From positions 2,117 through 66,116 of IMG/VR virus record IMGVR_UViG_3300034170_000024: a stretch of DNA of 64,000 bases. One strand, 5' to 3'. The translations under genes were made by a program, and so were the position numbers. The notes beneath the pieces were generated by a model. The model was not told the origin of the DNA and ran no database searches. It was given only the letters and a program-made list of their open reading frames with translations. Below are positions 30,925-32,461 of this stretch, in pieces. The DNA comes from a virus. Lineage: Duplodnaviria > Heunggongvirae > Uroviricota > Caudoviricetes. Every line of letters begins with the position of its first letter. Position 1 is the first letter of the stretch.

Positions 30925-31056
30925 ATGCCGTTCGATTACACTGGTTACTACTCTGTTACAGAGCTTGAGCTTCGTCGTCAACAGGAACGTAATGCGCAAC
31001 GTGAGCATGATCTTGAAAAACTTGCTCGTATGAAACGTTTGGAGATTGCAAGTTGA
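30925..31056 (+). CDS. possible 43-aa coiled-coil peptide
   Basis: AAGGGG SD 7 nt upstream; stop overlaps TTG start of lipoprotein gene; below ORF-track cutoff. Confidence 0.25.
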   Translation: MPFDYTGYYSVTELELRRQQERNAQREHDLEKLARMKRLEIAS

Positions 31057-31370
31057 AAAAGTTTCTGGTAGTATTGCTGACATCACTTGCTTTATCTGGT
31101 TGTGAGCAGCGTGAAGTGTTTAGTGAAAAGCAGTTGACAATGACAGTTGAGAGTGTCAAACTCACCAGCAAGTCGAACAGCAAGGTTACTCTGCGAGATG
31201 ATGCAAGTGGTCAGGTTTACTCTGACAATCGTCTCAGTTGCAACAGAACTCGTGCTAGTCGTGTTGTGATCGGTAGTAAATGGGTTGTAACTGAGGTTAC
31301 ATATGTGTATCCTGAAAGCAGGCGCTACACAAGTGAACTGGTTGGAACTCGTGGAATTTGCCCACAGTAA
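31053..31370 (+). CDS. small lipoprotein
   Basis: MKKFLVVLLTSLALSGC signal with LSGC lipobox; TTG start with GGAG SD. Confidence 0.55.
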   Translation: MKKFLVVLLTSLALSGCEQREVFSEKQLTMTVESVKLTSKSNSKVTLRDDASGQVYSDNRLSCNRTRASRVVIGSKWVVTEVTYVYPESRRYTSELVGTRGICPQ

Positions 31371-31389
31371 AAATAGTTGAAAATAATGC

Positions 31390-31418
31390 TTGACCACGGT
31401 GACCAACCTCTGTATAAT
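31390..31418 (+). promoter_or_regulatory. consensus sigma70 promoter TTGACC-17-TATAAT driving tRNA-like gene
   Basis: near-perfect -35, perfect -10, 17-bp spacer; predicted start about 5 nt before tRNA-like 5' end. Confidence 0.65.
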
Positions 31419-31429
31419 GGGCACCACAA

Positions 31430-31531
31430 GACGCGGTGATGGAATTGGTAAACATTGGGGAGCAAGCACTTAACGTTAGTGCCCATACCGCTGGCTTAAT
31501 TGCCTTGAGGGTTCGACTCCCTCCTGCGTCA
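31430..31531 (+). tRNA. tRNA-like gene, noncanonical length (~102 nt)
   Basis: 7-bp acceptor stem GACGCGG/CTGCGTC (one G-U), discriminator A, canonical T-arm GAGGG-TTCGACT-CCCTC; 3-bp D-stem with GG-containing 11-nt loop possible; central region forms a 5-bp hairpin GCACT-TAACGTT-AGTGC inside a longer irregular arm plus a 21-nt variable-arm-like segment; does not fit a standard cloverleaf by eye. Confidence 0.45.
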
Positions 31532-31558
31532 CTCTTATTTTAAACCAAGGAGAAACAA

Positions 31559-32461
31559 ATGAAACTGACTAACATTTTGAAAGCATCTGCACTGGCTCTT
31601 GCTGCAACCCTGATGGTTGGCTGTGGTGAACGAGTTGAAGTTCCACCGGGTTTTGTTGGTAAGATCATGACCAAAGATGGTTATCAGGAAGGCATGATTC
31701 CAACTTCGAAACTGCGTCTTCCTGCTTGCTTGAATTACTGTGATCGTCTGGTTGTACTGGATACAACTGACAAGAGCTATGTTGAACCGATGAAGATTTT
31801 CATCCCATCCGACAAGCTGGTTGTTGATGTTGATCTGCGTGCTACTCTGTCGGTTGATCCACAAAAGGCTGAGGCTCTGTTCAACAAACTACCACAAGCA
31901 CCGGTTAACGATTACTATTCGGTAATCAATGGTCAGGCAGTATTTAGTACTTATGGTCAACAGGTTCTGCAAGCTGAAGTTCGTGCATATCTGACTCAGT
32001 ACACCATTTCGGAAATCTCTTCGAGTGGTGAGAAGATCAACGCTGACATTCAGGTTCTTCTTTCCAAGGTTATGAATGAGCGCACTCCATTTACTGTTCG
32101 TTATGCTGGTTTGACGAATATTAAGTACCCTGAAATCATCACTCAGGCTCAAGAGAATAGTGCTAAGCGTCGTGAGATGATTGCACAAGAAGAAGCACAA
32201 CTTGAGGTAAGCAAAGTTCAACTGTCTCGTGAACTGCAAGAAGCTAAGATGCAGCGTGCAATCGACAAAGAGAAAGCTGAGACTGAAGCACAAGCACAGA
32301 TGGTATTGGCTAATGCTGTAGATACACGCTCTCTGCGAATCAAAGAGCTTGAGATTCAAAAGATTCTGGCTGAGAAGTGGGATGGTGGTATGCCACAAAC
32401 TATCATGGGTAATGCTAGCGGTATTCCTCAAATGATTATGGACATGCGTGGTAGCAAGTAA
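31559..32461 (+). CDS. SPFH/band-7 (prohibitin/HflK-like) domain lipoprotein
   Basis: MKLTNILKASALALAATLMVGCGE lipoprotein signal; body matches SPFH pattern, then coiled-coil (EEAQLEVSKVQLSRELQEAKMQRAIDKEKAETEAQAQ) and C-terminal tail like HflK/C. Confidence 0.6.
   Translation: MKLTNILKASALALAATLMVGCGERVEVPPGFVGKIMTKDGYQEGMIPTSKLRLPACLNYCDRLVVLDTTDKSYVEPMKIFIPSDKLVVDVDLRATLSVDPQKAEALFNKLPQAPVNDYYSVINGQAVFSTYGQQVLQAEVRAYLTQYTISEISSSGEKINADIQVLLSKVMNERTPFTVRYAGLTNIKYPEIITQAQENSAKRREMIAQEEAQLEVSKVQLSRELQEAKMQRAIDKEKAETEAQAQMVLANAVDTRSLRIKELEIQKILAEKWDGGMPQTIMGNASGIPQMIMDMRGSK

Follow-up and report, generated by a model that had tools for sequence, protein, structure and literature searches.

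SPFH cages (HflK/C, prohibitin, stomatin, and flotillin) are structurally understood, but their contents and purpose are still debated. Two bacterial arrangements come closest to the locus described here. One is the HflK/HflC pair, the FtsH modulators of E. coli, encoded by two tandem paralogues that form heterodimers. The other is the SPFH-NfeD operon, in which an SPFH gene is linked to a co-oriented gene for a membrane partner, as in QmcA-YbbJ, where QmcA faces the cytoplasm and the transmembrane (TM) part of the partner lies beneath the cage, and in the Pyrococcus stomatin PH1511 with the NfeD protease PH1510. Phages have SPFH proteins too. The SPFH open reading frames (ORFs) of T4-like phages were tabulated in 2006 (PMC1524935), and the role of the phage proteins was called poorly understood in a 2020 paper (PMC7760394) and unclear in a 2026 paper (PMC13239085). 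Here we analyze a 64,000-nt stretch of DNA (the window; positions 2,117 to 66,116 of IMG/VR record IMGVR_UViG_3300034170_000024) that is part of a siphovirus-type phage genome of ~100 kb. We find that its SPFH lipoprotein gene, ORF B, is an ordinary member of a long-annotated phage family and that the conserved unit of the locus is ORF B together with ORF C, a downstream gene for a small two-TM protein. Positions are those of the window unless another locus is named, and all features placed in the window lie on the plus strand.

ORF B (31559-32461) starts with an ATG 7 nt past AAGGAG and encodes a predicted SPFH/band-7 lipoprotein of 300 aa. The signal peptide and lipobox (residues 1 to 22, 31559-31624) read MKLTNILKASALALAATLMVG/CGE, the slash marking the predicted cleavage site, with lysines at positions 2 and 8 followed by TLMVG/C; read by hand, this agrees with the PROSITE PS51257 lipobox rule, and both Cys22 and the +2 residue, Gly23, are invariant in 46 homologues with 58 to 96% identity. 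The SPFH core follows (residues ~27 to 215, 31637-32203) and contains an invariant C57-x3-C61 pair, which is found in the window clade and in the Aeromonas, XacN1, ACP17, PT11-V22, and Comamonas copies. Beyond it are long helices (residues 192 to 272, 32132-32374) and a conserved tail, KWDGGMPQT...MIMDMR (residues 274 to 300, 32378-32458). The family consensus of this tail, KWDGxLPQT...MIMDMR, is kept nearly letter for letter in the T5 homologue despite an overall identity of 27%. In the T5, L6jm, and Cronobacter D6b homologues the same C-terminal tail is combined with an N-terminal TM anchor in place of the lipobox.

Profile and structure comparisons agree on the superfamily. Pfam Band_7 (PF01145) matches residues 27 to 215 with 36 bits against a gathering cutoff of 23.6 (E 9.5e-9) and was present in 120 of 120 ORF B homologues among the matches listed; PHROG 200 ("lipoprotein") matches with an E of 4e-46. 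A preliminary description of this DNA, made from the sequence alone, had given the 300-aa protein an SPFH core, a coiled coil, and a conserved C-terminal tail, and that reading holds. The AlphaFold2 model, made with the 46 homologues, has an alpha/beta core, helices at residues 192 to 253 (62 residues) and 256 to 272, and a disordered tail. Over ~270 to 300 residues, Foldseek aligned it with human prohibitin (8rrh, E 3e-12) and HflK/C (7vhq, 9cz2, 7wi3, and 9paw), and further with stomatin (9z7u), QmcA-YbbJ (8z5g), erlin, and flotillin; the matched PDB entries describe cage or ring complexes. The stomatin SPFH domain 4fvj (five chains) superposes on the model with target-normalized TM-scores of 0.73 to 0.77 and root mean square deviations of 2.4 to 3.0. 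These data establish ORF B as a predicted exported, lipid-anchored SPFH protein with the full architecture of a cage subunit (core, coiled-coil helices, and tail). Because its fold matches are cage subunits, ORF B would be expected to assemble into a ring or cage as well.

The family to which ORF B belongs is large. Using tblastn, we found the SPFH protein in 654 phage records, which include T5-like phages, KVP40-type and RB43-type T4-like phages, phiKZ-like and other jumbo phages, Nankokuvirus, and phages of Aeromonas, Alteromonas, Xanthomonas, and Acidovorax, and 612 protein clusters from metagenomes match ORF B. Identity to ORF B is 77% in Boevelstad and 72% in vB_PpS_SYP, the nearest relative, whose gene is already annotated as "band 7 protein." Set beside its direct homologues (PHROG 200, T5 ORF075 [AAX12012], KVP40.0339, RB43 ORF139c, and the vB_PpS_SYP protein), ORF B is one more member, with no essential difference from the known phage SPFH/band-7 proteins.

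ORF C (32701-33045) encodes a predicted two-TM hairpin protein of 114 aa. Its ATG, preceded by AAGGAG, overlaps (TAATG) the stop of ORF D (32513-32701), a 62-aa soluble ORF that separates it from the SPFH gene. ORF C has a charge-free N terminus, TM1 (residues ~2 to 20), a loop whose only charges are K/R, TM2 (~29 to 47), the motif QPSYMPKG directly after it, and a charged tail of ~67 residues. Throughout the family, all K/R residues before the motif are in the loop between the helices, with a mean of 3.3 K/R against 0.14 D/E, so by the positive-inside rule we predict an N-out/C-out topology in which the loop is cytoplasmic and the tail periplasmic. The family comprises 64 clusters at 50% identity, with lengths of 70 to 139 aa (mostly 97 to 124 aa), and has no Pfam match to ORF C at an E of ≤1 and no PHROG or NCBIfam match. 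ORF D is far less widespread. Its tblastn matches were limited to two related loci (L004 and L007) and a partial one in a third (L001), homologues at the equivalent position are confined to L004, L007, and Boevelstad (79 aa), and the Pfam and PHROG searches gave it no family.

The linkage of ORF C to the SPFH gene is what defines the unit. In all 22 related phage loci the SPFH gene is followed, after a gap of 6 to 298 nt, by a homologue of ORF C. Reverse look-ups that started from distant ORF C homologues found a Band_7 gene immediately upstream in all three cases, and XacN1 ORF081 is a clear homologue (38 bits). The pairing also occurs outside phages. A scan of one genome per bacterial species returned the SPFH protein at 17 loci (14 in Comamonas and one each in Lampropedia, Acidovorax, and Thiopseudomonas) with 55 to 61% identity to the phage protein, and the partner gene follows at all 17, with a gap of 9 to 27 nt at 16 of them and a partner start that could not be placed at the other (L047). 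The flanks of these copies are non-syntenic and consist of ordinary cellular genes (amidohydrolase, ThiF, ion channel, GGDEF) that are not phage-like. Because the flanks are non-syntenic and cellular, the SPFH and ORF C genes appear to travel as a self-sufficient cassette; vertical inheritance within Comamonas is ruled out by the same lack of synteny. One bacterial copy (L042) adjoins an HSDR_N restriction-type gene and Arc-like repressors.

In the loci examined, then, what is conserved is ORF B together with ORF C, a near-obligate pair. The new point is a modest one: an SPFH protein paired with a QPSYxPKG two-TM partner, an arrangement common to phages and to non-syntenic bacterial cassettes. 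The unit outlined in the preliminary description, 31053-32461, took in both lipoprotein genes of the region but stopped short of this conserved partner. For annotation the gain is small, in that ORF B can be labeled an SPFH/band-7 lipoprotein and ORF C-type genes its partner. A periplasmic phage SPFH protein with a tiny dedicated partner would be a minimal, genetically tractable system for asking what an SPFH cage does to a membrane patch, and the module would reveal what large virulent phages demand of the host envelope at an early stage of infection.

Compared with HflK/HflC, ORF B has the same SPFH core, long coiled-coil helix, and C-terminal cap segment, and the bulk of the protein is likewise predicted on the periplasmic side; the T5-type homologues even share the single N-terminal TM anchor. 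ORF B differs in having a lipid anchor rather than a TM helix, in being a single gene (with ORF D and ORF C as neighbors) where HflK and HflC are two, in lacking a match to the equivalog profiles, and in its conserved neighbor, the 114-aa hairpin protein. The SPFH-NfeD operons share with our locus the linked, co-oriented gene for a membrane partner, and the PDB entry title for QmcA-YbbJ (8z5g) places both proteins in one complex. ORF C differs from those partners in having no NfeD/OB domain (no Pfam match at the same threshold), and ORF B differs from the cytoplasm-facing QmcA in its predicted periplasmic location and lipidation. The ORF B-ORF C pair would seem to be a lipid-anchored, NfeD-independent variant of the SPFH-partner theme.

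These comparisons suggest a mechanism, about which our confidence is evenly balanced. ORF B would form a lipid-anchored, HflK/C-like periplasmic cage over a patch of inner membrane holding ORF C, and the output would be protection or control of the inner membrane. The operon would be expressed early by host RNA polymerase; once processed by signal peptidase II, ORF B would multimerize into an HflK/C-like dome that stands on the inner membrane, at its periplasmic face. ORF C would have its TM hairpin in the enclosed patch and its periplasmic tail (QPSYxPKG ... DRxxKP) touching the cage, and the module would fence off or stabilize an inner-membrane microdomain during infection. It might in this way bar entry or an insult from outside (rival phage DNA or membrane-acting abortive effectors), or it might control a host inner-membrane factor as HflK/C does FtsH. 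The physiological output is the weakest step of this mechanism and is a guess. We would rank organization or protection of a membrane patch, including exclusion of entry, ahead of FtsH-type modulation, then lysis control, and last a role in the virion. Superinfection exclusion and modulation of FtsH or of microdomains by the lipoproteins, which the preliminary description had put forward, are possible outputs.

The invariant lipobox Cys22 and Gly23 and the invariant C57-x3-C61 pair speak for a periplasmic location of ORF B. Three considerations favor the periplasmic face of the inner membrane in particular. The T5-type homologues, which have the same body and tail, must by virtue of their TM helix be anchored in that membrane, ORF C is a predicted inner-membrane hairpin with a periplasmic tail, and the +2 glycine is invariant. 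In E. coli reporters, glycine at +2 can function as a signal for Lol avoidance, and MexA, an inner-membrane lipoprotein of P. aeruginosa, begins CGKS.

Several results weigh against this picture of a caged ORF C. Confidence in the ORF B model is moderate (pLDDT 72.5), and the C-terminal tail scores below 50. The family profile, run against PDB sequences, found only a PH (Pyrococcus) stomatin (E 0.006), a single-sequence search of the same set returned noise only, and the NCBIfam SPFH/HflK/HflC models had no match to ORF B at an E of ≤1. Because the sequence is so remote from solved SPFH proteins and matches no NCBIfam HflK/HflC model, we file ORF B at the level of the SPFH superfamily, apparently outside every characterized subfamily. 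The partner is also missing from part of the family. T5-type proteins, which have their own TM anchor, have no ORF C-like neighbor, and neither has the SPFH lipoprotein of the Vi01-like phage PhiSH19, in which the lipobox is kept. In KVP40, PT11-V22, and ACP17 the gene after the SPFH gene does encode a two-TM protein of 105 to 140 aa with a charged tail, and in PA1C and RP8 a two-TM gene of that length precedes it, but a hidden Markov model built from 37 partners scored all five neighbors no better than an arbitrary two-TM control; these neighbors share the architecture of ORF C only. If ORF B were instead sorted to the outer membrane, the cage would stand there, and the tail of ORF C would have to bridge the periplasm. 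Finally, our literature searches found no experimental or functional study of any phage SPFH protein. Depositors had annotated one of the neighbors, KVP40.0338, as FxsA (PF04186), a match that we could not reproduce with current Pfam.

A broader proposal is more doubtful than the mechanism itself, though not far-fetched: ORF B and ORF C may be an unrecognized, horizontally mobile SPFH-client module, NfeD-independent and lipid-anchored (TM-anchored in T5), that is put to use in envelope conflict by many large virulent phages and, after capture, by some bacteria, for example as a cage that blocks entry of a rival genome or shields the membrane from abortive-infection effectors.

It is rather unlikely, in our view, that the locus as a whole is best explained by superinfection exclusion or receptor masking, in which ORF A (the small lipoprotein gene upstream of ORF B), the SPFH module, or both would keep this or other phages from adsorbing or their DNA from entering, in the manner of T5 Llp, Cor, or T4 Imm/Sp. 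From their sequences, both lipoproteins are predicted to be exported to the envelope, and the genes of both lie behind host-type promoters in the early region. T4 Imm and Sp, too, act at an inner-membrane location, and in Comamonadaceae chromosomes the SPFH-partner cassette stands alone, as a domesticated exclusion gene might. A PADLOC scan, on the other hand, gave no matches, and the SPFH family is kept across very different virulent phages with different receptors, which suits a general membrane function better than receptor masking. Beside the Vi01-like SPFH gene of PhiSH19 there is a gene annotated as "superinfection exclusion protein" (PMC3220722), which we considered as a partner and rejected, as its product is soluble and acidic and is no homologue of ORF C.

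The patchy occurrence of ORF A (31053-31370) is typical of accessory exclusion genes, and the preliminary description had likened it to the Llp/Cor type. The gene starts with a TTG 8 nt past GGAG, overlapping the stop of the upstream ORF, and encodes a predicted small periplasmic lipoprotein of 105 aa with the lipobox LSG/C and Glu at +2. Its N terminus reads MKKFLVVLLTSLALSG/CEQ, with a KK n-region and then LALSG/C, and it too fits PS51257 when read by hand; Cys17, Glu18, Cys63, and Cys103 are invariant in 10 homologues, while the Pfam LPAM_1 model stays below threshold (14.2 bits against 20). Both genes thus proved real at the positions given here, and the lipobox with its invariant cysteine (in 10 and 46 homologues) upholds the earlier reading of both products as lipoproteins. 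Like T5 Llp and the Cor proteins of phi80 and N15, ORF A would be a small lipoprotein of a virulent phage encoded in the early region. Homology to them, however, is limited to the signal peptide. The only Cor match, to PHROG 1119, has an E of 0.007 and covers residues 1 to 32, and the structure model, a small all-beta domain (pLDDT 84.6), matched no PDB fold at an E of <0.001. ORF A resembles neither Cor nor Llp in sequence or fold. It matches PHROG 19964 ("membrane protein," E 1.7e-37), and in BFVD it resembles only unnamed lipoproteins of ~100 aa from Pseudomonas and Aeromonas phages, none of them named as an Llp/Cor-type exclusion protein. Exclusion or receptor masking by ORF A is therefore a reasonable guess that the present data do not support, and ORF A should not be labeled Llp-like or Cor-like. 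The JGI name "YcfL" given to one homologue was not borne out either, as none of 10 members had a match to DUF1425 or any other Pfam family.

Nor do the two lipoproteins look like the functional pair that had been proposed. No homologue of ORF A lies within 3 kb of the SPFH gene in any of 22 GenBank and IMG/VR relatives. The order ORF A, promoter, tRNA-like element, and SPFH gene is kept in just two closer metagenomic relatives (2 of 24 in all), and in phage Ep020 the ORF A homologue and the SPFH gene are 43 kb apart. Besides metagenomic relatives, homologues of ORF A are confined to 34 Pseudomonas phage records from several genera (Otagovirus, pf16, and Cygsa01), where they occupy unrelated loci beside HNH endonuclease genes and small ORFs, and the gene is missing in most close relatives of the window phage. 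We read ORF A as a sporadic accessory lipoprotein that has probably been swapped among Pseudomonas phages and that lies outside the conserved module. In pf16 (NC_041881) the homologue, gp29 (2078-2815 in the coordinates of its locus), is annotated as a 245-aa "membrane protein," but only its final ~100 residues correspond to the ORF A-like lipoprotein, and they already contain a signal peptide and lipobox. The start annotated for gp29 is probably too far upstream, which would explain why the PHROG 19964 profile has 245 positions.

The likeness to HflK/C raises another explanation, that the phage SPFH cage mimics HflK/C and captures or displaces host FtsH, or another inner-membrane protease or complex, so as to alter membrane-protein proteolysis. 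HflK/C-FtsH structures (7vhq, 9cz2, 7wi3, and 9paw) are among the top fold matches, ORF B would occupy the side of the inner membrane on which HflK/C lies, and the T5-type homologues agree with HflK/C in their N-in/C-out topology with a single TM. Yet prohibitin, stomatin, and erlin match about as well, so that the fold does not point to HflK/C in particular; the HflK/HflC equivalog models give no match, the locus has one SPFH gene and not a heterodimeric pair, and the conserved neighbor is a small hairpin protein and not a protease. We consider such mimicry improbable.

Control of lysis seems very unlikely. ORF C could in principle be a holin- or antiholin-like protein regulated by the SPFH lipoprotein, since its two TM segments and highly charged C-terminal region recall class II holins, or the pair could be an unusual spanin, since a lipoprotein together with an inner-membrane protein recalls o-spanin/i-spanin pairs. 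A canonical lysis cassette, however, lies 7 kb away, at 22858-24258. It consists of an endolysin (PHROG 7, E 5e-31) with an N-terminal hydrophobic segment, possibly of the signal-anchor-release type, a holin-like membrane protein of 86 aa, an i-spanin-like ORF of 127 aa, and an overlapping 98-aa ORF that matches spanin PHROG 456 ("Rz-like spanin," E 8.5e-5). Furthermore, the promoter of the SPFH operon is of the early, sigma-70 type, the predicted topology of ORF C (cytoplasmic loop and periplasmic tail) is opposite to that of class II holins, and the SPFH-ORF C pair persists in bacterial chromosomes among ordinary genes. We also rejected the identification of the pair as a two-component spanin, as ORF B has 300 aa and an SPFH fold, ORF C has two TM segments, and both lie outside the lysis cassette.

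The idea that the SPFH protein is packaged in or attached to virions and acts at entry is scarcely credible: mass spectrometry did pick up SPFH-domain proteins in preparations of particles of the Vi01-like phage Sajous1 (3 spectra; PMC10892097) and of Eneladusvirus jumbo phages (PMC7760394), but such very low spectral counts are compatible with membrane contamination, the signal peptidase II lipobox would route ORF B to the periplasm and away from cytoplasmic assembly, and the gene is sited in the early/replication region, apart from the structural genes.

The position of the locus in the genome and its transcription signals fit an early operon. The DNA polymerase shares 75% identity with its counterpart in Pseudomonas phage vB_PpS_SYP and 60% with the one in phiPMW. 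Structural genes fill the window from 1 to 21 kb and replication genes from 26 to 40 kb, and the SPFH/lipoprotein region is taken as early because it is sited between the helicase and the primase/polymerase genes and has sigma-70-type promoters. The promoter directly upstream of the SPFH operon, the only one so placed in this genome, is TTGACC-17-TATAAT (31390-31418), an 11/12 match to the consensus, and is predicted to drive the tRNA-like RNA as well. TTGAC and TATAAT are kept at the same position in relatives; those without the tRNA-like element have TTGACA-17-TATAAT ~60 nt upstream of the SPFH gene. The operon would end at an intrinsic terminator, GCCCCGC-CATAGA-GCGGGGC-TTTTT (33185-33209), which we read directly from the sequence, the terminator scan having reported only the opposite-strand reading of this hairpin. 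From promoter 31390 through ORF B, ORF D (where present), and ORF C to terminator 33209, the operon is to all appearances self-contained. Directly after the SPFH stop, at 32470-32495, there is a GC-rich 7-bp hairpin (GGGCTAC-12 nt-GTAGCCC) without a T-run, which may be an RNA stability or processing element within the operon.

With its own promoter and terminator the operon is moron-like in form, yet it would seem to be a conserved operon of the early region rather than a recent insert. The preliminary description had called the locus a moron, which does not agree with a G+C content of 0.44 for the SPFH gene against 0.416 overall in a window that is even at ~0.41, with conservation of the gene throughout the lineage, or with the 654 phage records. 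The region is better described as three separate things: the accessory lipoprotein ORF A, a promoter-driven tRNA-shaped RNA, and the conserved envelope operon led by ORF B.

The promoter and the tRNA-like element noticed earlier between the two lipoprotein genes are both present. The element (31430-31531) scores 33 bits against a cutoff of 29 with the Rfam tRNA model, although only with lax filters; at gathering filters Rfam did not report it in the window, nine related loci gave nothing with Rfam at an E of ≤0.1, and ARAGORN found no tRNA in the window and none in 20 related loci. The element is built of an acceptor stem, a tRNA-Leu-like D arm, a T arm, and a 17-nt variable arm, but an irregular 31-nt arm takes the place of the 17-nt anticodon arm of a canonical tRNA. 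Including the window, 8 genomes of the lineage carry a copy, always upstream of the SPFH gene (L004, 2654-2760; L007, 2858-2960; L012, 2585-2711; L015, 2891-2973; L023, 2687-2848; L053, 4397-4503; and L054, 3871-3972, in the coordinates of each locus). Across the 8 copies, 7 acceptor- and T-stem pairs have changed on both sides, a value that 0 of 500 shuffles reached, and 89.8% of cells are paired against 39 to 55% in slid controls. The central domain varies from 32 to 111 nt, unlike a normal anticodon arm. In L004, L007, L023, and L053 it forms a covarying 6-bp stem (TCAGTA/TACTGA, ATCGAT/ATCGAT, or TCAATG/CATTGA) with a 12-nt loop, the final 8 nt of which, of the GGUGACAGU type (GGTGACAGT), are the same in all four. 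The acceptor and T stems are real, and the element does not qualify as a canonical tRNA; it may serve as a processing signal or a decoy, or it may be a tRNA-like RNA that does not decode.

Genuine tRNA genes precede SPFH genes elsewhere. In T5 (AY587007) a tRNA-Arg gene (40626-40700) lies directly upstream of the band-7 gene, whose annotated coding sequence overlaps the tRNA, and in XacN1 a tRNA cluster (29948-30860) lies directly upstream of the SPFH gene, echoing the tRNA-like element before ORF B. The recurrence may be chance, given that both lie in early regions, or a sign of co-transcription and processing.

The transcription unit after the terminator, with a promoter TTGACA-17-TAGAAT at 33228-33256, also encodes an exported protein. 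The ORF is listed as 33225-33611, but that start would run into the promoter, and the true start is probably near 33288 (GTG AAA AAG TTT). Its product has a leader of the signal peptidase I type, KKFVIGAAFAIFGLSMVNAQA/VEN, and matches PHROG 2315, a family of unknown function. Together with ORF A and the SPFH operon, it makes the early region a cluster of genes for envelope-targeted proteins.

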